Origin: Alphaproteobacteria bacterium
GTDB lineage: Bacteria; Pseudomonadota; Alphaproteobacteria; UBA2966
DNA length: 64,000 nt
Assembly: GCA_964291395.2 (NCBI GenBank)
Contig: OZ219856.1
Span: 512,001 to 576,000, forward strand
Direction of reading: 5' to 3'
The notes beneath the pieces are model-generated. The model did no database searches and was not told where the DNA came from. It worked only from the letters and a program-made list of their open reading frames with translations. Below are positions 42,397-63,797 of the stretch, in pieces. A program made the position numbers and the translations under genes. Each line of letters begins with the position of its first letter. Position 1 is the first letter of the stretch.

Positions 42397-44088
42397 CTAC
42401 CGCTGCGCCCGGTGGGTGAACGCGTCGCGGCGGAAGCTGATCATCGCCTCGGGATCGACTTTGACGTGGACGATCACCGGGCAGTCTGCCTTCACCGCCT
42501 GGCTCATGGCGTCCGCCACGCTTCCCGGCTCCTCGCAGAAGTATCCCTCCGCGCCATAGAGCCTGGCGAACTCGTCGTATCGCGGATTGATGGTATCGCA
42601 ACCGATGTAGCGGCCCTGATAGAAGTCGCGCTGATAGGATTTCTCGGCGCCCCAGCAACCGTTGTCGAAGACGACCGTGACGGTGTTGATCTCCGACTGG
42701 ACGGCGGTCGCGAACTCCGGCAGGACCATGCCGAATCCGCCGTCCCCGTGAAGGGTGACGACGGGGCGGCCGGGCTGCCCGCACTTGGCGCCCAGGCCGC
42801 ACGGGAACCCGAAGCCGACCAGTCCGTAATCCAGGGGTGTCAGCATGCTGGGCGCGCCCTCGTACCGCAGCTTGTCCGTCGCCTGCAAACACATGGTGCC
42901 CGCGTCGAGCGTGTACAGCGCGTCTTCGGGCGCCGACCGGCGCAGCTCCGCGAACACGCGCTCCGGCCGCAGAGGCGTGAGCGTGCTCTCGCCGTCCTCC
43001 TCCCGCGCTTTCCAGAGCGCCTCGAGATCCTCGAGGAACTGCTGGGAGCGCGCCTTCCATGGGACGGAGTCCGACTCCATGTCGCTCAAGCCGTCGGCGA
43101 TGGCTCCGGCAGCGGTCCCCGCATCGCCGATGATCCCGACCTCGATCGGGAAATACTTGCCCAGCGCTGCGGGCTCGATGTCGACCTGGATGATCTTGGC
43201 GTCCTCGTTGATGTCGTTGTAGGTGTAGAACGTGGTATTGAACGCGAGACGCGTGCCGATCGCGAGGATGACGTCGGCCTCCCGCGTCGCGGCGCTGGCG
43301 ATTTCGTTGCCGCGCGGGCCGATCTGGCCGGCGAAGAACGGGTGGCTCGTGGGAACCACGTCGGGGTGCCCCGCCGACGCTGTGACCGGGATCTGCAGCC
43401 GGCTCGACAGGCGGCAGACCTGATCCGCGCCTCTGCCCCATTTCACCCCTGCGCCGGCCAGAATGGCGGGAGCCTTGGCACCGCGCAGGATTTCGCAGGC
43501 CCTGGCGACGGCGTCCGGGTTGCAGGTTCCCGCCGCCGCGCCGATCTCGAAGTCGGGCGCTCTGATGTCGGCCTCGATCTGCGCGGCGAACATGTCCCGC
43601 GGGATGTTCACGGCGACGGGGCCCCGGCGGCCCGAATTGGCGATGCGCAGGGCCTCCTCGATCGCGGCAGGCACCCGGTCGGGGCGAATCACCGTGATGT
43701 TCTTCTTGACCAGGGACGCGAAGAGATTCTGTTGATCGACCTCCTGGAACGCATCCCGGCCGAAGTGATCGGTGGCGACCAGTCCGGTGAGACAAACGAC
43801 GGGCGAGTAGGCGAGCTTGGCCGCGGCCATGCCGGCCACCATGTTGACGGACCCGGGGCCGGCTTGGCCCGCTAGGAAGACGCCGGGTCGGCCCGTGGCA
43901 CGCGCGAACCCGTCCGCCATGTGAACGCCGAAGGCTTCGTGCCGGACGCCCACGTACTTGATGTCGCGGGTGTCGTAGAGGGCGTCGTAGACCTCCATCG
44001 TCGAAGATCCGAGAAGGCCGAACACGTGTGTCACTCCCGCGGCCCGCAGTGTCTCGACGACCGCCGCTCCTCCATTCATCTGGGCCAT
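42397..44088 (-). CDS. ThDP-dependent enzyme (ALS superfamily, Xsc-like)
   Basis: VRHE, ADGFAR, GPG, AFQE, GDGGF...NGCWGAEK. Confidence 0.88.
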   Translation of the reverse strand: MAQMNGGAAVVETLRAAGVTHVFGLLGSSTMEVYDALYDTRDIKYVGVRHEAFGVHMADGFARATGRPGVFLAGQAGPGSVNMVAGMAAAKLAYSPVVCLTGLVATDHFGRDAFQEVDQQNLFASLVKKNITVIRPDRVPAAIEEALRIANSGRRGPVAVNIPRDMFAAQIEADIRAPDFEIGAAAGTCNPDAVARACEILRGAKAPAILAGAGVKWGRGADQVCRLSSRLQIPVTASAGHPDVVPTSHPFFAGQIGPRGNEIASAATREADVILAIGTRLAFNTTFYTYNDINEDAKIIQVDIEPAALGKYFPIEVGIIGDAGTAAGAIADGLSDMESDSVPWKARSQQFLEDLEALWKAREEDGESTLTPLRPERVFAELRRSAPEDALYTLDAGTMCLQATDKLRYEGAPSMLTPLDYGLVGFGFPCGLGAKCGQPGRPVVTLHGDGGFGMVLPEFATAVQSEINTVTVVFDNGCWGAEKSYQRDFYQGRYIGCDTINPRYDEFARLYGAEGYFCEEPGSVADAMSQAVKADCPVIVHVKVDPEAMISFRRDAFTHRAQR

Positions 44089-53581: not shown

Positions 53582-54520
53582 TCAGGCTGCCTTCTCGCCC
53601 CGGATCGTCGTGCGATGCATGTGCCGGCGGTCTTTCTCGTAGTCGTAGTCGTTGATGGCGTAGTGCATCAGCGTGCGGTTGTCCCAGAACACGATATCGT
53701 TCGGTCTCCACGCGTGGCGGTACACGAACCGCGGCTGCGAGGCGTGATCTGCGAGGAAGTCGAGCAACGCGGCGCTTTCCTCCCGCGTCATGCCGACGAT
53801 GCCGGTCGTGAACCCGGGACTGAGGAACAACGACTTGCGCCCCGTCTCGGGATGCTCGCGCACGAGGGGATGGATCACCGGCGGAGTCCTGGCCAGCTGC
53901 TCCGGCGTGATCGGTTCGTTGAGACCGAGGTTCTTCACGAGGCTCTGCACCTTGGCGAAACTGTGCTCGGCCTCCAGCCCTTCCAGAAACGACCGCATCG
54001 GCGCGGACAGGGCGTCATAGGCCAACGCCAGGTTCGCGAACATGGTGTCGCCGCCGACCTCGGGAACCTCGATGGCGCGGAGCAGGGAGCCGAGCGACGG
54101 TTGCGCCATATAGGAGAGGTCGGAATGCCAATAGTGCCCGGCGCCGGCGCGACCCACGCGTTTCCCGTCCTTCTTCAGGTTCGAGAGGATGTAGATCTCG
54201 GGCAGCCCGTCGAGCAGGGCGTCGTTCAAGACATGATGCTCGAGTTCCCCGAAGCGCCTGCTGAACGCGACATGAGCCTCGGGCGAGATGTCCTGGTCGC
54301 GGAACAACAGCAGGCCATGGGTGTTGAAGGCATTCCGCAGCGTAGCGATCTCGGCGTCGGAGAAGTCCCGCGACAGGTCGATATCGCGGACCAGCGCACC
54401 CAACGCCTGCGAGGCCTTCGTGACGGTCATCTTCGATTCGGCGACGCGGCGGCGCGGCGGAGCCTGCCTCCCGGCCTTGCCCGCGCGCTCCGCGCCGGCG
54501 GTCTCGCTTGCGATTGACAT
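53582..54520 (-). CDS. TauD/TfdA family 2-oxoglutarate/Fe(II) dioxygenase
   Basis: WHSD, GGDT, HPETGRK, WDNR..MH, MHR. Confidence 0.92.
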   Translation of the reverse strand: MSIASETAGAERAGKAGRQAPPRRRVAESKMTVTKASQALGALVRDIDLSRDFSDAEIATLRNAFNTHGLLLFRDQDISPEAHVAFSRRFGELEHHVLNDALLDGLPEIYILSNLKKDGKRVGRAGAGHYWHSDLSYMAQPSLGSLLRAIEVPEVGGDTMFANLALAYDALSAPMRSFLEGLEAEHSFAKVQSLVKNLGLNEPITPEQLARTPPVIHPLVREHPETGRKSLFLSPGFTTGIVGMTREESAALLDFLADHASQPRFVYRHAWRPNDIVFWDNRTLMHYAINDYDYEKDRRHMHRTTIRGEKAA

Positions 54521-54749: not shown

Positions 54750-55235
54750 ATGACCATATCTGACAAAGCCCTCCTTCACGTCCTCAAGCTGCTTGAGGAG
54801 GCCGACAACCTCGCGATCGAGGTCGAGTCGGGTGGCATGCGTCTCACGGCCCGGAAAGGCGACGCCGCCTCAATTCCGCGGACGGATGCCGCTGCCACAG
54901 GTCCGAATGCGAGCGGTGGTGAGGCCGGCGCTCCGTTGCCGGAACCGGCACCCGCGGCGGCGACCGAACCGTCCGCCGACGCGGCGGAAGACGGGGTGAT
55001 CGTCGTGCGTTCACCGATGAAGGGCACGTTCTACCGGGCTCCGGCTCCGGGAGAACCCCCGTACTGCGACGCCGGCGACCGGGTCGGCCCCGACGACACC
55101 GTGTGCCTGGTCGAGATCATGAAGCTGTTCAACTCGATCCCGGCCGGGGTCTCGGGGACCGTCGAGAGGTTCTTCGTCGAGAACGCCGCACCCGTCGACT
55201 TGAACCAGCCCATCGTCTCGATCCGTGCCGACTGA
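54750..55235 (+). CDS. accB: biotin carboxyl carrier protein
   Basis: Ala/Pro linker, SPMKGTFYRAP, EIMKL biotinylation motif. Confidence 0.9.
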   Translation: MTISDKALLHVLKLLEEADNLAIEVESGGMRLTARKGDAASIPRTDAAATGPNASGGEAGAPLPEPAPAAATEPSADAAEDGVIVVRSPMKGTFYRAPAPGEPPYCDAGDRVGPDDTVCLVEIMKLFNSIPAGVSGTVERFFVENAAPVDLNQPIVSIRAD

Positions 55236-55263
55236 GGCCGCTGCACCAAAGCCTGATCCGCCA

Positions 55264-56745
55264 ATGTCCCGGCGATTACAGGTCTTCGACACCACCCTGC
55301 GGGACGGGCACCAGTGCCTGTGGGCGACGCGCATGCCGACGGCCATGATGCTGCCGGTCATCGAGACCTTCGATCGCACGGGCTATGGTGCCATCGAGCT
55401 GATGGGCAACGTGCATTTTGACGCCTGCGTTCGCTATCTGCGTGAGAATCCCTTTGAACGCCTGCGTGAAGTCAAGAAGCGGCTGGTCCGGACGCCGCTC
55501 CAGGGCTTCATCCGCAGTGCCTGCGTCCTCGGATTCGACATCAAGCCCGCCGATATCAACCGCCTTTGGGTCGACGTCCTGCTGCGCAACGGGACCGACC
55601 GTCTGCTCGCCTTCGACGGGCTTCACGATTTCGACAACACGGCGCCCTACCTGAGATACGCGAAGGAAAACGGGGCGCGGACCGTCCATTGGCTGATATT
55701 CAGCGACAGTCCGGTCCATACCGACGAGATGTATGCCGCCAAGGCGCGCGAGATCATCGACCGCGCCGACGTCGACGAGATCGTCATCCAGGACACGAGC
55801 GGAATCCTCACGCCGGAGCGCGCGGCAACTCTCGTGCCGGCGCTGAGGGCCGCGGCCGGCGACCGGCCGTTGGGTCTACACAGCCATTGCCTGGTGGGTC
55901 TTCCCCAGCGGACCTATCTCGAGGCCGCGCGGCACGGCGTGGACGGGCTGTATACCTGCGTCTCCCCCATCGCCGACGGTAACGCGCCGCCCTCGGTCCA
56001 GACGACAGCGAGAAATCTGCGCTATGCGGGCTATGAGCTCGACATCGACGACGCGGCGATCGATGCCATCAGCCGACATCTCGACGCCGGGATCACCCTG
56101 CTCGGCAAGCCCCCGGGGCGGCCGCAGGATTTCGATCTCGGTCAGTTCGATCACCAGATCCCTGGCGGCGTGATGTCCAATCTGATCGCCAATCTGGAGC
56201 AGGCGGGCATGGCCGACCGGCTCGCCGCGGTCCTTGAGGAATCCGGCCGGGTGCGGGCCGAACTGGGTTGGCCCATCATGGTCACGCCGTTTTCCCAGCA
56301 CGTCGCCGTGCAGGCGGCGCTCAACATCATCCACGGCGAGCGCTACGGTGTCGTCCTCGACGAGGTCAAGCTCTACGCCTTGGGATATTTCGGAAAGCTG
56401 CCGGCCCCGGTCGAGCCGGACGTCCTGGACCGCATCATCGAGAGGGGATCGGCGGCGATCGCCTTGGACCCCCCGGAACCGGAGCCGGCCGTGGAGCGGC
56501 TGCGCCGGCAGTATCCCGGAATCGACGATGAGGAGCGCATGCTTCGCTATTCCTTCCCGGAGGATGCGGTCGACGACCTCTACGCCCGGCCCGGCGACAA
56601 CCTGCCCCCGACGATGTCCGTTCCGTTCCTCGACCTGGTCGACAAGCTGCGGGACCGGAACGTCCCGGCCCGGATCTCGGCCGGGGGCGCGGACATCGAC
56701 GTGGAGATCAGTCCCGCCGCGGCGTCCCGCGGGAGCGGCGCGTAG
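55264..56745 (+). CDS. pyruvate/oxaloacetate carboxyltransferase-like subunit (PycB/OadA/5S-like), paralog 1, no biotin domain
   Basis: DTTLRDGHQ, HSH, HQIPGG..SN, VTPFSQ; IQDTSG in place of IKDMAG. Confidence 0.85.
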   Translation: MSRRLQVFDTTLRDGHQCLWATRMPTAMMLPVIETFDRTGYGAIELMGNVHFDACVRYLRENPFERLREVKKRLVRTPLQGFIRSACVLGFDIKPADINRLWVDVLLRNGTDRLLAFDGLHDFDNTAPYLRYAKENGARTVHWLIFSDSPVHTDEMYAAKAREIIDRADVDEIVIQDTSGILTPERAATLVPALRAAAGDRPLGLHSHCLVGLPQRTYLEAARHGVDGLYTCVSPIADGNAPPSVQTTARNLRYAGYELDIDDAAIDAISRHLDAGITLLGKPPGRPQDFDLGQFDHQIPGGVMSNLIANLEQAGMADRLAAVLEESGRVRAELGWPIMVTPFSQHVAVQAALNIIHGERYGVVLDEVKLYALGYFGKLPAPVEPDVLDRIIERGSAAIALDPPEPEPAVERLRRQYPGIDDEERMLRYSFPEDAVDDLYARPGDNLPPTMSVPFLDLVDKLRDRNVPARISAGGADIDVEISPAAASRGSGA

Positions 56746-56747
56746 CC

Positions 56748-58211
56748 ATGGCGCGGACCATCCGCATCGTGGACACCACGCTTCGCGACGGGCACCAGTG
56801 CCTGTGGGCGACGCGCATGCCGACGGCCATGATGCTGCCCGTGGCGGACGCCTTCGACCGCTCCGGATTCTGGGTCATCGAAATGATCGGGGCGGTTCAG
56901 TTCGACGCCTGCATGCGGTTCATCGGCGAGAATCCCTGGGCCCGCATCCGGGAACTCCGCCGCCGCATCTCACGACCCCTCCAGGTGATCATGCGCAGCA
57001 ACTGCGCCCTCAATTTCGATCGCCAGCCCGTCGACATCAACGAGCTCTGGGGGGAACTGCTGGCGAGGAACGGCCTCGACCGGGTCTATGCGTTCGACGG
57101 TCTGCACGACTACGACAACACGGTCCCCCAACTTCTGAGCGCCAAGGCGCATGGCGCCCGGATCGGTCACTGGCTGCTCTACAGCGTCAGCCCCGTCCAC
57201 ACCGACGAGCTCTATGTGCGCAAAGCGCGGGAGATCATCGACCGCGCCGGAGTCGAGGAACTCATCATCGAGGACGCGAGCGGCGTGCTGACCCCGGAAA
57301 GGGCCGCCACCCTGGTGCCGGCGCTCAAGCGGGAGATCGGCGACATGCCGCTCGGCCTACACATGCATTCCCTCGTCGGGCTGCCGCAGCGAACGTATCT
57401 GGAGGCCGTCAAGCACGGCGTCGACAACCTCTATTGCTGTGTCTGGCCAGTCGCGGACGGCAATGCGCCGCCATCCGTGCAGACGACCGTGCGTAACCTT
57501 CGATACGCGGGCTACGACGTGGCAGTGAACGACGAGGCGGTGGACGACATCAGCCGTCATTTCGAGGAGCAAGCCTTCCTGCACGACATGCCGACGGGCG
57601 ACCCGCAGGACTTCGACCTCGCGCACTTCGACCACCAGATCCCCGGTGGCGTCCTGTCGAACCTGATCTCCCAGCTCCGGGACGTTGGACTGGAGCACAA
57701 GCTTCCCCACGTCCTTGAGGAATGCGGCCGAGTGCGGGAGGATCTGGGCTGGCCGATACAGGTCACGCCGTTCGCCCAGTTCCTGGCGGTGCAGGGAACG
57801 TTCAACGCCATCCACGGCGAGCGCTACGCCGTGGTTCCGGACGAGGTGAAGAAGTATGCACTCGGCTACTTCGGCAAGCATCTGTCGCCGGTCGATCCGG
57901 ACGTCATGGACCGCATCGTCGAGCGGGGCTCCAAGCAGATCCCCTTGGAAGCGCCTGAGCCGGAGCCCGCCGTCGACCGGCTGCGCGCGCGGTATCCGGA
58001 CATGCCGGACGAAGAGCGGTTCCTGCGCTACTCGTTTCCCGAGGAGATCAGCGAGGCCACGCTGTCGAAAGATCCGATCGCACCACTTCCGCCCATCCTG
58101 ACATCGTCATTCGTCGACCTGCTCAAGGCGCTCCGCGAGATGAAGCGGGGCACCCACGTGTTCATCCGGCAGGGTGGCGTCGAGATCGCCGTGGAGGCGC
58201 GCACCGCGTAG
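56748..58211 (+). CDS. pyruvate/oxaloacetate carboxyltransferase-like subunit, paralog 2, no biotin domain
   Basis: DTTLRDGHQ, HMH, HQIPGG..SN, VTPFAQ; IEDASG in place of IKDMAG. Confidence 0.85.
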   Translation: MARTIRIVDTTLRDGHQCLWATRMPTAMMLPVADAFDRSGFWVIEMIGAVQFDACMRFIGENPWARIRELRRRISRPLQVIMRSNCALNFDRQPVDINELWGELLARNGLDRVYAFDGLHDYDNTVPQLLSAKAHGARIGHWLLYSVSPVHTDELYVRKAREIIDRAGVEELIIEDASGVLTPERAATLVPALKREIGDMPLGLHMHSLVGLPQRTYLEAVKHGVDNLYCCVWPVADGNAPPSVQTTVRNLRYAGYDVAVNDEAVDDISRHFEEQAFLHDMPTGDPQDFDLAHFDHQIPGGVLSNLISQLRDVGLEHKLPHVLEECGRVREDLGWPIQVTPFAQFLAVQGTFNAIHGERYAVVPDEVKKYALGYFGKHLSPVDPDVMDRIVERGSKQIPLEAPEPEPAVDRLRARYPDMPDEERFLRYSFPEEISEATLSKDPIAPLPPILTSSFVDLLKALREMKRGTHVFIRQGGVEIAVEARTA

Positions 58212-58237: not shown

Positions 58238-58265
58238 TGTGCCCCACCGCGCGGGGTGGGGCACA
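58238..58265. terminator. hairpin between convergent operons
   Basis: TGTGCCCCACC-N6-GGTGGGGCACA, preceded by AAAA (U-tract on the minus strand). Confidence 0.65.
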
Positions 58266-58286: not shown

Positions 58287-59360
58287 CTAGGAGCCCGCGC
58301 TCACCTTGCGGTTCCACTTTTCCGTGTAGACCGTGCGGTCGACCTTGGAGAAATCGATCGAGTACATGTTCTTGATTTCGTCGGGCTTCAGCCGCATGAA
58401 ATCCATGCCGGGCTCCGAGGCGTAATCGGCCAGGACATCTTCCCGAGAGGACAGCAGCCAGCCCTTCATGACGCCGCGCTGGTGCTGCTCGCTGATGAAC
58501 TGGTTGACGATCCAGTCGCGGGCCGCGTCGTTCTTGCCGCCCTTGATCTTGACCAGCCACCCCTGCTTGAGCACGCCGAAGATACCGGGCTTGACCTCGG
58601 CATGCGTTGCCCACAACGGGGCCACGCCCAATAGACGGCCCATGGTGTGGACGCCGGCACAGGCGGCCCAGACGTCTCCGCTCTTGAGCAGGGTCCGGAG
58701 CGCGGAGTTCGACTTCCAGAAGGCCTTCACTTCGAGGCTGGCGATCAGATCGAGCGCCGGGTCGATGTTGGACTCGTCGCCACCGCCTTCCAGGGCCATG
58801 CCGACGAGACAGGGCATCACGCCGCCACCGGCGATGTCGGGTACCGAGATCTTGCCCTGCAGCTTGGGGTGCTTCAGGTCCGCGTACTTCTTCGGCACCG
58901 GAATGCCGTGCTCCTTGAACTTCTCGGTGTTGTAGATGATGGCCGATTGGGTGGTCCAGGTCTTCACCCAGTGCTTCGACTTGTCCTGTTCCGCCAGGGC
59001 CGACGCGTTGGGGACCTTGCCGAAGTCGATCTCGTCGAGGTAGCCCTTGGCTGCCAACGGCGGCAGGAAGTCGTCTGTCGTTTCCATCAGATCGAACGGC
59101 GGTTCCGCGCCGCGCGACGCCACCAGCTTGCCGAAGTTGGGGCTGGGCGACCCGGCGACGTAGACCATCTTGCCGCCTTCCTTGGCGAAGGCCTCGCCGA
59201 CCGTCGATTCGATCAGGTTGCGCCATTTACCGCCGAAGCTCGCGACGCGAACCTCGACGCCGTCGAACATGCCGGCGAAGGACGGTTTGACGCCCGTGGT
59301 TGCCATGCCCGCGGCGACGAGGCCGACGGCCAACAACCTGATTGTTGTCCTAGAATTCAT
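58287..59360 (-). CDS. ABC substrate-binding protein (PotD/PotF-like)
   Basis: Signal peptide; VASFGG, VPN, IIYN, YADL.HP. Confidence 0.85.
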   Translation of the reverse strand: MNSRTTIRLLAVGLVAAGMATTGVKPSFAGMFDGVEVRVASFGGKWRNLIESTVGEAFAKEGGKMVYVAGSPSPNFGKLVASRGAEPPFDLMETTDDFLPPLAAKGYLDEIDFGKVPNASALAEQDKSKHWVKTWTTQSAIIYNTEKFKEHGIPVPKKYADLKHPKLQGKISVPDIAGGGVMPCLVGMALEGGGDESNIDPALDLIASLEVKAFWKSNSALRTLLKSGDVWAACAGVHTMGRLLGVAPLWATHAEVKPGIFGVLKQGWLVKIKGGKNDAARDWIVNQFISEQHQRGVMKGWLLSSREDVLADYASEPGMDFMRLKPDEIKNMYSIDFSKVDRTVYTEKWNRKVSAGS

Positions 59361-59488
59361 GCTGTTCCTCCCAGTGGGTGCCTGTCCGACCAAGTACCAA
59401 GCGACGACACTTCTCGAACTTTGGGGACTCTAGTCCCGCGACGCGGCGCCGTCCAATCGACCCATCGAATCAGTCAAATGCACCGAAT

Positions 59489-60319
59489 TCATCTCGTGCG
59501 GACGAAGACGTCGAGGCCGGTGAACCGCTGGATTACGAGCAGCACGATCAGGGAGAAGACGACAACGATGGTCGACGCGGCGAGCACGGTCGTATCGAAT
59601 TCCTGCTCGAGTGCGAGGAAGACCTCGACGGGGAAGGTCGACGTTCCCGGCTTGGACAGGAATATGGCGATGGGAACGTCGCCGAACGACACCATGAATG
59701 CGTAGAGGCTGCCGGCGAAGACGCCGGGGGCGATCAACGGCAAAGTGATCCGCCGGAAGGTCGTCCACCGGCTGGCCCCCAATGTCTGCGCGGCTTCTTC
59801 CAGTGCCGGCTGGAAGCGCTGGAGCACCGGCACGACAGCTCCGATGACGAACGGCGTGGCCGCGAATACGTGGGCGATGGCGAGTCCGACGAACGTCCCG
59901 TTGGCGTACCACCCGGTCGCGGCGCCGATCGCGTAGTAGGCCTGCAGAAAGGCGAGGCCCATGACCACGCCCGGGATCTGCAGGGGCACGCGGAACAACG
60001 TCATGATCACGGACTTGCCCACGACGTTGCTGCGCACCAGCCCCAATGCCGCCGGTATGCCGATCAACGAGGCGCCGAGCGCCGCGGCGACCCCGACCGT
60101 GACGCTCAGGTAGATCCCGTCGGTGATGTATTCGGGGATGTTGAGATAGGCGTCGAAGGTGAAGCGCTCCGGCGGAAACACCACGTACGCCCGCTCCCCG
60201 TAGTCGAACGAAGAGGCCACCACGATGACGATCGGCGCGAAGAGGAATACGTAGACCGCGGCAAGAACGAAAGCTCGCGATCCTTTCGAGACAAGCTTGC
60301 CCCGCGTCTGAGGGTTCAT
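59489..60319 (-). CDS. ABC permease (PotC-like)
   Basis: LEEAAQTLGA EAA loop, ITLPLIAPG. Confidence 0.88.
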   Translation of the reverse strand: MNPQTRGKLVSKGSRAFVLAAVYVFLFAPIVIVVASSFDYGERAYVVFPPERFTFDAYLNIPEYITDGIYLSVTVGVAAALGASLIGIPAALGLVRSNVVGKSVIMTLFRVPLQIPGVVMGLAFLQAYYAIGAATGWYANGTFVGLAIAHVFAATPFVIGAVVPVLQRFQPALEEAAQTLGASRWTTFRRITLPLIAPGVFAGSLYAFMVSFGDVPIAIFLSKPGTSTFPVEVFLALEQEFDTTVLAASTIVVVFSLIVLLVIQRFTGLDVFVRTR

Positions 60320-60337
60320 CTTTGCGCCTCCCCTGCC

Positions 60338-61201
60338 TCAGACCATGATCGCCTGGCCGCGCCGGAAGCGCTTCACGAGCGCGACCGAGAACAGATTGAT
60401 GAGTACCACGGCGCCGAGCAGGATGACGGCGAGGGCCGCCCCCATGCCGTAGTTCGTGTTCACGATGACGCTCTGCTGCACGATGACCGGCAGAGTCACG
60501 ATCTTGCCCGCGCCGATGAGCGCCGTCGAGGCGAACCCGCCGATGCTGATGTTGAAAACCATCAGCGAGCAGATCACGACTCCCGGCGTCGCCAGGGGCA
60601 GAATGATCCGCCGATAGACGTTGAACCGTCCGGCGCCGTGAATCTGTGCGGCCTCCTCGAGGCTGCGCGGGATGGTCAAGATGATGCTGTAGATCAGCAG
60701 CACCGCGAAGCCCAGCGAATAATACATGAGTCCAGTGATGACTCCGGCGAAAGTACCCAAAATGGTGAACGTCTCTTCGATCAAACCGAGCGCCAGAAAC
60801 AAGCGGTTGACGATTCCGTCGGGACTGAACAACACGATGAGTCCCAGGACCTTGATGGCGATGGTCACGAACTGGGCGACCACGACCAGCGCCAGGAACA
60901 ACATCGCCCAGCGGGACGTCATACGCGCGATGATGTAGGCGACGGGCACCGCGCAGACCATGGTGAGAACGGTCGCCGCGGCGGAGATGTTGATCGATAG
61001 CAGGAGAACGTTCAGGTAGTAGGGGTCGGAGAAGGCCCTGAGGTAGTTGACGAGTTCGTAGGTCGTCGAGAGATCGCCGTACCCCAGATCCTTGTGGAAA
61101 CTCCCCTTGATGAAGATGAACTGCGACGCGACCAGCAGCACCACCGTCAGGACGAGCGGTGGGAACAGGATCAACTCCCATCTGGCCTTGATGCCGCTCA
61201 T
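60338..61201 (-). CDS. ABC permease (PotB-like)
   Basis: LEEAAQIHGA, ILPLATPG; ATGA-coupled to the upstream reductase. Confidence 0.88.
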   Translation of the reverse strand: MSGIKARWELILFPPLVLTVVLLVASQFIFIKGSFHKDLGYGDLSTTYELVNYLRAFSDPYYLNVLLLSINISAAATVLTMVCAVPVAYIIARMTSRWAMLFLALVVVAQFVTIAIKVLGLIVLFSPDGIVNRLFLALGLIEETFTILGTFAGVITGLMYYSLGFAVLLIYSIILTIPRSLEEAAQIHGAGRFNVYRRIILPLATPGVVICSLMVFNISIGGFASTALIGAGKIVTLPVIVQQSVIVNTNYGMGAALAVILLGAVVLINLFSVALVKRFRRGQAIMV

Positions 61202-62187
61202 TCGTTCATCTGCAACAGGATCTTTCCGGTGCGGTCGCCGTGCCCCGCATGGTGAAGCGCTTCCCGCACTCTCCACAAGGGATAGACCGCTTCCACGTCC
61301 GCGTGGAGCTTCCCGTCGACGATCAGTTCGGCCAGACGGTCCGTGACGCGGGAAATCTCTTGCGGTGGCGCCGTGACCTGCCACTTGGCGCGCCAAAAGC
61401 CGCGTAGCTGAACGTCCCGGAAGATCACATCCCGCGGGTCGACCATGCAGGGCTCTCCGCTGAGCAATCCGTAGTTGACGATCGTGCCGCCCACGGCGAG
61501 GCAGCGTGCCATCTCTTCCGTCGCCTTCCCCGCCACGGCGTCGATTCCGAGCCCGATTTCCGCCCCGCCGGTCTCCGAGGCGACGCGTTCGGCGAGGTCC
61601 GGGCCGTCGAGCAAGACCACGTCGGCTCTCAGCCGCTTCAGGGGCTCGATGGTCCGTGGCCGGCGGACGACGTTGACCGTCCTGAAGCCTTCGATCCTCG
61701 CCAGTTGGACGAGGTATCGCCCGACGGCGGAGTTCGCGGCGTTTTGAATGACCCAGTCGCCGCGGGACAGCTCGACGAAAGTCGTCAGCATGAGGTAGGC
61801 CGACGCCGGATTCGCGCGCATCATGCAGAGTTGCCGCGAATCGCCCTCGTCCGGCAGCGGCGTGACCTGGGTGGCGGGCGCCGTAATTTTCTCGCACCAG
61901 GTGCCGCGCCCCGGCGGCAGTAGCACCCGGTCGCCGACCTTGGCACTCGCGACGTTGTCTCCAACGGCGCTCACCCGGCCCAGGCCCTCGACACCGGCGA
62001 TGGCCGGCAGCTCGGGCGCCGCCGCGCCGTAGCGCCCCTCCATCGCCAGCAGGTCGCCTGGATTCACCGGCGCGAACAAGACGTCGATCGAGACCTCGCC
62101 GTCCCCCGGCGCGGGCGGGTCGGGCACCTCGTCCAACTCGATGACTTCGAGGGGTGATCCGAGGTGGGCGAACCGTGCAGCTTTCAT
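61198..62187 (-). CDS. MDR enoyl-thioester reductase-like (MECR/Etr1-like)
   Basis: APVNPGD, GVEGLG, NPASAY, QNAANSAVG, YGLLSG. Confidence 0.85.
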   Translation of the reverse strand: MKAARFAHLGSPLEVIELDEVPDPPAPGDGEVSIDVLFAPVNPGDLLAMEGRYGAAAPELPAIAGVEGLGRVSAVGDNVASAKVGDRVLLPPGRGTWCEKITAPATQVTPLPDEGDSRQLCMMRANPASAYLMLTTFVELSRGDWVIQNAANSAVGRYLVQLARIEGFRTVNVVRRPRTIEPLKRLRADVVLLDGPDLAERVASETGGAEIGLGIDAVAGKATEEMARCLAVGGTIVNYGLLSGEPCMVDPRDVIFRDVQLRGFWRAKWQVTAPPQEISRVTDRLAELIVDGKLHADVEAVYPLWRVREALHHAGHGDRTGKILLQMNE

Positions 62188-62234
62188 GTTTCGTGTCTCC
62201 GAGAGAGGGCGCACGCCCCGTTTGCCGCCGGGCG

Positions 62235-63797
62235 TCAGCCCACGCGGCGTTCCTGGCCCGCCCAAAACTTCTCGCGGACATCCTTCTTCAGGACCTTGCC
62301 GACCGCGCTTCTCGGAAGCTCGTCCCAGAACTCTACGGTCTTTGGCGACTTCACGCTGCCTAGCCTGGCCTTGCACAACGAGATGACTTCGTCCTCGGAG
62401 ACGTGCCGTTCGGGCTTGAGCTCGACGACCGCCTTGACCGCTTCGCCCCACTTTTCGTCCGGAACCCCGATCACCGCACAATCCTGAACCGCCGACAGCG
62501 TCAGGATCACGTTCTCGACCTCGCTCGGCCACACGTTGAATCCGCCGGACACGATCATGTCCCGTTTGCGGTCGACGATGTAGACATAGCCGTCCCCGTC
62601 CTTGTAGCCGATGTCGTTCGTATGATGCCAACCGTGGGCGGAGACCTCTTCGGTCGCGTCCGGGCGTTTGTAGTAGCCATCCATGACGATTCCGCCCCGC
62701 GTCACGATCTCGCCGACCTCACCGGCCTTCAGAATACTGCCTTCGTCGTCCATGATCTCGACCGCGGTGAAGAGGCTGGGCCGGCCCGCGCTGCGCAGAC
62801 GATGTTCCTTGTCCGGATCCCGGCAGGCTTCCGCCTGGTCCTGCCTGGAGAAATAGGTGCTGATGAAGGGCGATTCCGTTTGCCCGTAGGATTGCGACAT
62901 GACGGGTCCGAAGACGTCGACGGCCTCCTTGAGCTTGTCCGGAGACATCGGCGACGCCGCGTAGTGGAAGTACTTCAGGCTCGAGTAGTCGCAGTCCCGC
63001 ACCCCGGGGTGCGCGAGCCACCTGTAGATCGCGGTCGGCGGCAGGAACACCGTCGTGACCCGGTGCGTCTCGATCATCTCCATCATGACCTCGGGAAGGG
63101 GCCGTTCGACGACGACGATCGTCGTGCCGTGCGGCAGCAGCATCAGCGACATCGCGCCCGCCACGTGCGTCATCGGCGCCGCCGCGAGATAGACCGGCGG
63201 CTCCTCGTAGGGCATGGCGGCCGAGGCGTTGGCGAGCATGAAGGCGAAGTTGAGATGGGTCAGAGGAACGCCCTTGGGAACGCCGGTGGTGCCTCCGGTA
63301 TAACGAATGGCCGCGTAGTCCCGCGGGTCGCAGGCGATATAGGGCGCCCGATCCTCCCGGTCCGCGATCCAGTCGTCCAAAAACGGCGCGTTCGCGCCCT
63401 CGCGATCCACGCAAACGAACTTGCGGATGCCGGGCACGCGGTCCCGGATCTCGGCGGCGTGCTCCTCGAACGCGCTGTGATAGAAGAGGAGTTCGCAGCC
63501 GCTGTCGCCGAGGACATGGACGTTTTCCGCCATCGCGCCGCGCGCGTTGATCGGCACCCACGCCGCGCACGCCCTCAGGATTCCCAGCACGCAGATGAAC
63601 GCCATGGCGTCGTTGGGGCTGAAAACGGCGGCTTGGCGGCCCTTGGAGATTCCTTCCGCGATGAGGGCATTGCCGATCCTGTGCGTGAGCCGTTGGGTCT
63701 CGCCGAACGTGACGCGTCGGCCGCCCTGGATGAAGCAGTCCCGCTTCGGGTTCAGGGAGACACCTCGGTCGAAATAGTCGATCAGCCTGAGTACCAT
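62235..63797 (-). CDS. AMP-binding acyl-CoA ligase
   Basis: YTGGTTGVPKG, YGQTE, DRKRDMIVSGG, VGKV. Confidence 0.92.
   Translation of the reverse strand: MVLRLIDYFDRGVSLNPKRDCFIQGGRRVTFGETQRLTHRIGNALIAEGISKGRQAAVFSPNDAMAFICVLGILRACAAWVPINARGAMAENVHVLGDSGCELLFYHSAFEEHAAEIRDRVPGIRKFVCVDREGANAPFLDDWIADREDRAPYIACDPRDYAAIRYTGGTTGVPKGVPLTHLNFAFMLANASAAMPYEEPPVYLAAAPMTHVAGAMSLMLLPHGTTIVVVERPLPEVMMEMIETHRVTTVFLPPTAIYRWLAHPGVRDCDYSSLKYFHYAASPMSPDKLKEAVDVFGPVMSQSYGQTESPFISTYFSRQDQAEACRDPDKEHRLRSAGRPSLFTAVEIMDDEGSILKAGEVGEIVTRGGIVMDGYYKRPDATEEVSAHGWHHTNDIGYKDGDGYVYIVDRKRDMIVSGGFNVWPSEVENVILTLSAVQDCAVIGVPDEKWGEAVKAVVELKPERHVSEDEVISLCKARLGSVKSPKTVEFWDELPRSAVGKVLKKDVREKFWAGQERRVG

Follow-up and report, generated by a model that had tools for sequence, protein, structure and literature searches.

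In the studied carboxyltransferases (CTs) of the pyruvate carboxylase (PC) type, the Lys of the motif IKDMA is the carbamylated metal ligand, and the roles of the enolate-stabilising Arg and Gln residues and of the catalytic Thr come from the PC literature. Here we describe an operon in which this Lys is replaced. It encodes one biotin carboxyl carrier protein (BCCP) and two tandem PC-type CTs (CT1 and CT2), and it lies within a stretch of 64,000 nucleotides from an alphaproteobacterial genome. The whole stretch is called the window and corresponds to G000:C1:512001-576000, G000 being the window's own genome; coordinates without a prefix are positions within the window.

Among the described systems, the operon can be likened by description to the three-component biotin-dependent (phospho)aryl methyl ketone carboxylases HpeCBA, AcvCDE and XccABC (Rhodococcus rhodochrous GD02, Sphingobium sp. 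SYK-6, Aromatoleum aromaticum EbN1). In the reports on HpeCBA and AcvCDE, a methyl ketone is carboxylated to a 3-oxoacid, which is converted to its CoA ester and then cleaved (PMC9618137; bioRxiv 10.1101/2022.04.28.489975). HpeCBA is dependent on ATP, Mg2+ and HCO3-, and a CoA synthetase comes after it (PMC9618137); AcvE is a PycB-like CT (bioRxiv 10.1101/2022.04.28.489975). The window resembles both systems in a separate BCCP, separate PycB-like CTs that share one cluster with it, and a putative 3-oxoacid product destined for a CoA-activating enzyme. Unlike all three systems, its cluster is without a biotin carboxylase (BC) and has two CT paralogs in place of one, and its neighbours are a TauD-family dioxygenase, a Pot-like ATP-binding cassette (ABC) importer and a reductase of the medium-chain dehydrogenase/reductase (MDR) type.

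The two-subunit PC of Methylobacillus flagellatus (PycA and PycB; Protein Data Bank (PDB) entry 5ks8) gives the best match of CT2 (chain 5ks8_C, E-value 1.5e-71; template modelling (TM) score 0.81-0.83). Its BC is on a separate polypeptide, and the RD.HQ, Arg, HxH and Thr-Pro set is common to it and the window CTs. In PycB the CT carries a fused BCCP domain and has the Lys of IKDMA as its metal ligand, whereas the window has a free BCCP, CTs that end in a helix-hairpin tail, and Glu or Gln at the Lys position. The Propionibacterium transcarboxylase (12S, 5S and 1.3S) is similar in its 5S-type CT (TM score 0.83-0.84), its free carrier and an operon without BC, but no AccD-type 12S partner is encoded in the window, where a further 5S-type paralog makes up the second CT. 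The window carrier is AccB-like over its full length, in contrast to the 1.3S carrier, which is not known to have the AccB-type N-domain. The Na+-translocating oxaloacetate decarboxylase has the same OadA-type CT fold (2nx9_A, E-value 3.4e-71), but neither OadB nor OadG is encoded near the window operon, and the BCCP of the operon is unfused.

We consider it probable, with moderate confidence, that the operon encodes the carboxyl-transfer module of a multi-subunit, ATP-dependent carboxylase of keto compounds, with BC supplied in trans, Glu or Gln as a metal ligand, and a 3-oxoacid product passed to a CoA ligase. By analogy, the system would be of the same general kind as two-subunit PC and the HpeCBA, AcvCDE and XccABC carboxylases. 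A BC encoded elsewhere, for which the best candidate is a spare AccC-like gene at C1:428100-429434 and the alternative the housekeeping AccC, would load CO2 from bicarbonate, at the expense of ATP, onto the biotin of Lys125 of the AccB-like carrier. The carrier would hand the carboxyl group to CT1 and CT2, probably a heteromer of both paralogs, in which a divalent metal may be held by Asp, His-x-His and either Glu175 (CT2) or Gln189 (CT1) in place of carbamyl-Lys. The CTs would add it to the alpha-carbon of a keto compound able to enolise, be it a 2-oxo acid or some other anionic ketone, and the 3-oxoacid so formed would be turned into a CoA ester by the neighbouring AMP-forming ligase. Gene content, fold, motifs, the Glu or Gln throughout the clade, purifying selection, the neighbourhood counts and the genome inventories were observed; the BC in trans, the heteromer, the metal ligation by Glu and Gln, the reaction's direction and the kind of substrate are the parts of this scheme that we infer.

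Inspection of the open reading frames (ORFs) bore out the first-pass annotation of an accB-CT1-CT2 operon, with three co-directional ORFs filling positions 54750-58211. The start of CT1 was placed at a GTG overlapping the BCCP stop codon; an ATG at 55264 is equally possible. The BCCP matched the Pfam domain Biotin_lipoyl with 53.8 bits and the AccB model TIGR00531 with 108.9 bits, below the cut-off of 115.2, with profile positions 8-155 of 156 covered. Its biotinyl Lys125 lies within EIMKLF (codon 55122-55124), and in alignment it shares the full-length AccB-type architecture with the carriers of BC-linked systems. CT1 and CT2 are 62% identical, and each has the HMGL-like and PYC_OADA Pfam domains. 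Both fall under every curated cut-off for PC, OadA and 5S proteins in NCBIfam; the best model was NF006761, with a cut-off of 402 bits and scores of 369 and 357 bits, and the oadA equivalog gave 321-324 bits against 756.5.

The active-site motifs were located as had been read at first pass. CT1 has RDGHQ at R26, the second Arg at R97, H219/H221 and the VTP Thr at 354, and CT2 has the corresponding residues R13, R83, H205/H207 and Thr340, so that the Asp and His-x-His metal-ligand positions are kept in both (D27/H219/H221 in CT1, D14/H205/H207 in CT2). The fourth ligand, carbamyl-Lys, is missing from both CTs: the column holds Gln189 in CT1 (VIQDTSG, codon 55789-55791) and Glu175 in CT2 (IIEDASG, codon 57270-57272), and the HMMER alignment to solved structures sets Glu175 opposite the Lys of IKDMA in both 5ks8_C and 2nx9_A, in agreement with the replacement first noted. 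Matches of CT2 to PDB chains of PC beta, OadA and 5S ranged from E 1e-58 to 1e-71. The structure prediction proposed at first pass, an AlphaFold model of CT2, had a pLDDT of 89.1, and its predicted fold aligned in Foldseek to the PC beta, 5S and OadA structures (5ks8, 1rqb, 2nx9) with TM scores of 0.81-0.84. Across 44 members of the clade, R13, D14, Q17, R83, D176, H205, H207 and T340 (CT2 numbering) are invariant; the enolate-stabilising Arg and Gln and the Thr of V-T-P are present in the two CTs and constant in the clade.

Each stand-alone CT ends, over its last ~35 residues, in a helix and a beta-hairpin, for example THVFIRQGGVEIAVEA; in CT2 this tail comprises residues 453-483, with model strands at 470-475 and 478-483. 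The tail region (CT2 residues ~441-487, 58069-58211) resembles the N-terminal helix-hairpin of the partner BCCPs (LAIEVESGGMRLTARK; window BCCP 54750-54860) and of AccB, as was also noted for the window genome's own paralogs and for L028-L034 and L177. The CT tail and the BCCP N-domain may be a shared docking module for holoenzyme assembly.

The replacement is widespread. Of the 120 best homologs from a collection of 5.8 billion proteins, 94 have Glu at the Lys column, 17 have Gln and one has Tyr; eight were unparsed and none has Lys, which gives Glu or Gln in 111 of the 112 with a readable column. In trees of the reference-genome loci and the window genome's paralogs, the Glu/Gln proteins group together as a single clade (support 97 in both FastTree and IQ-TREE) whose sister clade keeps Lys. 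A second Glu-for-Lys replacement is found inside a Lys clade (support 98), in the same-genome paralog C1:1454564-1456003 (VILEDAAS; L021:8044-9510). The CT of a Rhodococcus plasmid (IEIEDAAG) groups with Lys-type CTs of Sphingobium and Pseudomonas. The minimum number of state changes at the column is six for 40 rows; the column state of Lys-clade rows misparsed as D or '?' was not used (L058, L125, L130, L149, L150, L064, L169). The replacement arose independently in at least three lineages. Such recurrence of a carboxylate fits Glu assuming the ligand role of the carbamate, and the idea of Glu as a stand-in for carbamyl-Lys, raised at first pass, gains from the state being fixed in a clade under purifying selection and present in clusters that have both BC and BCCP. 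In Creative-Commons papers of PubMed Central and in bioRxiv, nothing relevant was found on a natural Glu-for-carbamyl-Lys replacement in PC-type CTs, nor on clusters of BCCP, OadA-like CT, acyl-CoA synthetase and tripartite ATP-independent periplasmic (TRAP) transporter genes.

The paralog C1:1454564-1456003 has no BCCP or BC nearby, and its neighbours are Rieske oxygenases, an RraA-like gene and a 3-hydroxyisobutyrate-dehydrogenase-like gene. On plasmid pDSM109990_c of Sulfitobacter dubius (L181, 4771-8470), a divergent cluster of two biotinyl proteins, BC and CT adjoins a TRAP transporter; its CT has LRNAQQ in place of RD.HQ and Ser at the Lys column, a further and more radical active-site variant.

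Gene neighbourhoods were compared at 75 reference-genome and 79 metagenome loci, scored by tblastn with the window proteins and with BC, CoA-synthetase and TRAP queries; full flanks are here at least 8 kb on both sides. Near-duplicate contigs are included in the counts (L108-L114; L104/L105; L030/L107; L034/L042; L054/L079). The Gln plus Glu tandem was found at 10 loci besides the window, plus one fragment, and among 23 genomes of the same order it is present in all six of the window's genus and in no others. The survey of orthologous clusters for BC, suggested at first pass as a check on ATP independence, gave a mixed answer. Within the DNA examined, which extends to 8.5 kb upstream and 10 kb downstream, none of the 10 tandem loci has BC in cis, including the six with full flanks, as an ATP-independent system would have it; against this, the single-copy Glu loci with full flanks have BC in the same cluster in six of seven cases. 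Overall, BC accompanies 14 of 28 single-copy Glu/Gln loci, plus L185, and most of the others lie on contigs that are short or cut. The single-Gln loci L028 and L104/L105, with the gene order BC-BCCP-CT, are the closest outgroups to the tandem pair. The sole other genus of the family with the gene (genome G019) has one Glu-type copy in the order BCCP-CT(E)-ScoA-ScoB-BC.

This distribution bears on an alternative in which the operon encodes an ATP-independent two-site transcarboxylase: one CT would strip a carboxyl group from a 3-oxo or 2-oxo dicarboxylic donor onto the BCCP-biotin, and the other would pass it to a different keto acceptor. Such an enzyme would operate in the manner of the Propionibacterium transcarboxylase, though built from two PC-type CTs and lacking an AccD-type subunit. 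In a version confined to one genus, BC would have been lost and the CT duplicated, and CO2 would be shuttled from one keto acid to a different one via one AccB-like carrier, with the metal ligated by Glu or Gln in place of carbamyl-Lys. The alternative, which we judge unlikely in either form, draws on the absence of BC in cis from the window and all 10 tandem loci as against its presence in most single-copy relatives, on the coincidence of duplication and BC loss in one genus, and on the single carrier for two CTs. The coincidence is, however, one evolutionary event (n = 1), and the carrier keeps the AccB-type N-domain of BC-linked systems.

The gene inventory of the genome is also relevant to this choice. 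The first-pass statement that the window has no BC, OadB or AccD-type gene holds, since whole-genome searches put every match to BC, the single OadB and the AccD-type CTs outside C1:512001-576000; six full Carboxyl_trans (AccD-type) genes occur in the genome, none of them in or near the window. The genome encodes eight stand-alone PC-type CTs and one full-length PC. Among its five BCCP+CT modules, the BCCP-BC-CT(Lys)-TauE module at C1:426.6-430 kb (L017) is the only one with BC; the other four have none in cis, and three of these have a single CT. The absence of BC is therefore a habit of the genome and not a mark of the duplicated operon, and the three single-CT modules are left without explanation by a transcarboxylase. 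The arrangement of carrier plus CT with BC elsewhere is common in the family and the rule in the genus, independent of duplication; in other taxa, 5 of 28 Lys-type single-CT BCCP+CT loci with full flanks are also without BC, which again speaks against a transcarboxylase.

The BC of the C1:426.6-430 kb module groups with that of L028 (support 91). A second AccC-like BC (662-672 bits) is present in each of four same-genus genomes, and by its coordinates it abuts a Lys-type CT in three of them. A spare AccC-like BC is kept in 5/5 genomes checked (the window's own and these four), and its retention in every genome of the genus examined is a further point against transcarboxylation. Five same-genus genomes have 6-8 PYC_OADA genes each; they are in part the same assemblies as others examined, under other handles.

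The other CT paralog loci of the genome are L018 (719.6-721.3 kb), L019 (729-733.5 kb), L020 (2261-2263 kb), L021 (1454.5-1456 kb) and L022 (827.3-828.7 kb), all on G000 C1. Genes near L017-L022 are, among others, TauE-type sulfite exporters at three of the loci, a pair resembling sulfopyruvate decarboxylase, Rieske oxygenases, PhyH, a phosphoenolpyruvate-mutase-like gene and RidA; they lend the paralog set an organosulfonate and oxo-acid flavour.

A soluble decarboxylase or lyase, biotin-dependent or biotin-independent, would read the loss of carbamyl-Lys as a shift to the aldolase and lyase chemistry of the DRE-TIM enzymes. To our knowledge, other DRE-TIM enzymes lack the carbamyl-Lys ligand, and we take the D-x-x-G context (QDTSG, EDASG) to resemble that of isopropylmalate synthase (IPMS) and the aldolase members of the superfamily. 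In NCBIfam the CTs also weakly match the models of IPMS and of 4-hydroxy-2-oxovalerate aldolase, with E-values from 1e-9 to 1e-13, and neither BC nor OadB lies in the window. We nevertheless hold this possibility to be highly improbable: the PYC_OADA domain, the VTP Thr and the adjacent conserved BCCP point to carboxyl transfer to or from biotin, the Glu state also occurs in clusters with BC, and a soluble decarboxylase needs no biotin carrier. The only OadB of the genome (C1:2410182-2411246) stands with an AccD-type alpha subunit 1.8 Mb from the window operon. The proposal of an ATP-independent transcarboxylase or soluble decarboxylase made at first pass is hence disfavoured, given that the nearest single-copy relatives are BC-linked, the spare BC is kept and the carrier is of AccB type.

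The OadB locus itself (L184, C1:2410182-2413588) is of the Na+-decarboxylase type. It encodes the AccD-type alpha subunit at 585 bits, a small biotin carrier that lacks the AccB N-domain, and OadB at 518 bits; acylphosphatase and RidA-like genes come next.

The history of the two CTs was examined in trees and in comparisons of orthologs. CT1 and CT2 are sisters in free trees, with support of 89-95. A tree constrained to hold all Gln-type CTs in one clade, as an older duplication would have it, costs 12.5 log-likelihood units and is no more than at the border of rejection in the approximately unbiased test (p-AU 0.056). The ratio of nonsynonymous to synonymous substitution rates (dN/dS) against six orthologous loci was 0.05-0.17 for CT1 and 0.05-0.15 for CT2; both copies are under purifying selection. 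Between ten orthologs of each, 61 differences are fixed, some of them flanking R83, the middle residue of HxH and the VTP helix, and by comparison with single-copy relatives CT1 is the derived copy at some of these sites and CT2 at others. The Gln-type CT is unlikely to be a dead enzyme, because a single Gln-type CT is the sole CT of the BC-BCCP-CT loci L028 and L104/L105.

The retention of all catalytic motifs in both CTs under purifying selection, with fixed differences partly clustered beside the active-site motifs of both copies, is again in line with a transcarboxylase. It bears in addition on a variant of our preferred explanation, BC-dependent like it, in which catalysis would fall to one paralog of an obligate heterodimer, the other having taken on a structural or regulatory role. 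The solved structures of 5S, OadA and PC, the same entries that are the top fold matches here, show dimers of PC-type CT domains; the genes are tandem and co-conserved, and each copy is derived at different motif-adjacent sites compared with single-copy relatives. A division of labour of this kind is nonetheless improbable in our view, as neither CT has lost a catalytic motif, dN/dS is equally low for both, and single Gln-type and single Glu-type CTs each serve as the sole CT of BC-BCCP-CT clusters.

Several observations count against a carboxylase supplied with BC in trans. The window and all 10 tandem loci are without a BC within 8-10 kb, and its loss coincides with CT duplication, as a shift to transcarboxylation would look. 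The counts hold near-duplicate contigs, so that some ten independent lineages carry the BC link, and at two loci (L029 with 10 kb flanks and L032 with 5.5 kb flanks) the Glu-type CT stands alone, BCCP and BC both being absent from its vicinity. The case for BC in trans is one of gene inventories only; the candidate BC lies in its own complete BCCP-BC-CT(K) operon, so its sharing is assumed, and no regulatory motif was found to be shared upstream between the window operon and the genome's remaining BCCP/CT modules, only short GC-rich 9-mers not above chance. Metal binding by Glu and Gln is a prediction from sequence. The fixed differences beside catalytic motifs also fit two substrate specificities; an obligate heteromer fits them too.

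The clusters of the relatives connect the carboxylase to CoA chemistry. An AMP-forming ligase occurs in those of L030, L031, L107, L109, L110, L112 and L079 (in L030, from the cultured Azospirillum oleiclasticum RWY-5-1-1, the order is TRAP-IclR-BC-ligase-BCCP-CT), and an ADP-forming acyl-CoA synthetase in those of L028, L033, L115 and L116, the first of which also holds a thiolase. In one case (L185, G019) the activator is a 3-oxoacid CoA-transferase, whose A and B subunits reach 330 and 278 bits, each above its curated cut-off. TRAP transporters and short-chain dehydrogenases/reductases are also frequent in Glu/Gln clusters. Three unrelated activators thus occur inside clusters of the Glu/Gln type, and CoA activation is part of the carboxylase module there. 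In the window, the candidate for forming the CoA ester of the putative 3-oxoacid is the ligase in the convergent operon; in the single-copy relatives, the ligase, ADP-forming synthetase or ScoAB is within the cluster. The window ligase is 34-50% identical to the ligases inside the clusters of single-copy Glu-type relatives and is kept in seven of the 10 tandem loci.

The Rhodococcus plasmid cluster consists of kinase-like genes, BCCP, BC, CT, thiolase and phosphatase, in the style of HpeCBA and AcvCDE; its CT has Glu at the Lys column and is 35.5% identical to CT2. No substrate kinase or phosphatase was found among the Pfam-annotated neighbours of the window operon, and the substrate is therefore not expected to be a phenolic ketone. 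Levulinate, sulfonated keto acids and aminoketones were considered as specific substrates, and none could be supported. A match on a plasmid of Azoarcus sp. KH32C, considered as an Xcc-like cluster, was an ordinary full-length pyruvate carboxylase. Plasmids of Sphingobium yanoikuyae and Pseudomonas putida (L179, L180) carry a Tm-1-like ATP-binding protein, BCCP, BC, CT(Lys) and a HAD hydrolase, L180 also with an acetoacetate-CoA ligase; the name given to the CT in their annotation, 'biotin carboxyl carrier protein', seems to be a misnomer.

The features of the operon and its surroundings are listed in Table 1. The flanking genes named at first pass were confirmed, the TauD-family gene being divergent from the operon and the CoA ligase, MDR reductase and ABC genes forming one convergent minus-strand operon, in which there is no ABC ATPase gene. 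The TauD-family gene is the divergent neighbour in nine of the 10 tandem loci, and TauD genes also flank the single-copy locus L029; a functional link to the operon is conjectural. A hairpin had been taken to close the operon. It is real, with the stem GTGCCCCAC/GTGGGGCAC starting 28 nt past the CT2 stop codon; as its T-tract is on the minus-strand side, it is assigned by consensus to the convergent binding-protein gene as terminator.

Table 1. Features of the BCCP-CT1-CT2 operon and its flanks (window coordinates)
Feature	Position	Strand	Basis or remarks
BCCP, 161 aa	54750..55235	+	AccB-like N-terminal helix-hairpin domain, Pro/Ala-rich linker, biotinyl domain
CT1, PC/OadA/5S-type carboxyltransferase, Gln189 at carbamyl-Lys column	55225..56745	+	Domains, motifs
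CT2, CT1 paralog, Glu175 at carbamyl-Lys column	56748..58211	+	Domains, PDB alignment, model
GC-rich hairpin between convergent operons	58239..58264 (approximate)		T-tract on minus-strand side
TauD/TfdA-family 2-oxoglutarate dioxygenase	53582..54520	-	254 bits with the taurine dioxygenase model (cut-off 313)
AMP-forming acyl-CoA ligase at the head of the convergent operon	62235..63797	-	Pfam, homology
MDR (zinc-ADH/quinone-oxidoreductase-like) reductase	61198..62265	-	Pfam
Pot-like ABC importer parts	58287..61201	-	Binding protein 58287-59393; permeases 59489-60319, 60338-61201

Some genes farther from the operon were also recorded. Just past the window (L183, G000 C1:575000-587000) lie PCuAC, a ComA-like gene (phosphosulfolactate synthase family) and a gene resembling sulfolactaldehyde reductase, though scoring below its cut-off, all three of which are also conserved in L023; a family III CoA-transferase lies there as well. 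Within the window, a thiamine pyrophosphate (TPP) enzyme at 42397-44088 on the minus strand has sulfoacetaldehyde acetyltransferase (Xsc) as its best match (426 bits against a cut-off of 620) and adjoins an NAD-dependent epimerase-like region. In two same-genus genomes (L026:11474-15136, and L027), DUF4276, AAA_21 (AbiEii-like) and DUF3226 replace the ligase/ABC operon downstream of CT2, in what looks like an inserted defence-type island.

The carbamyl-Lys has been regarded as a constant of the PC-type CT site, and here a large and widespread clade encodes Glu or Gln instead. The clade is a natural test of the purpose of the carbamate, for example CO2 sensing as against simple metal ligation. 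The form found in the genus, BC-less with twin CTs, 6-8 CTs per genome and one spare BC, is a compact case either of one BC serving many modules or of a transcarboxylase derived from a carboxylase; if the latter were true, the window system would add a second kind to the transcarboxylases now known, and no earlier one would have been made of two PC-type CTs. An undescribed catabolic pathway, as suggested at first pass, is plausible. The clade comprises multi-subunit carboxylases tied to the CoA activation of a 3-oxoacid, and these probably mark uncharacterised carboxylation-dependent catabolic routes in Proteobacteria.

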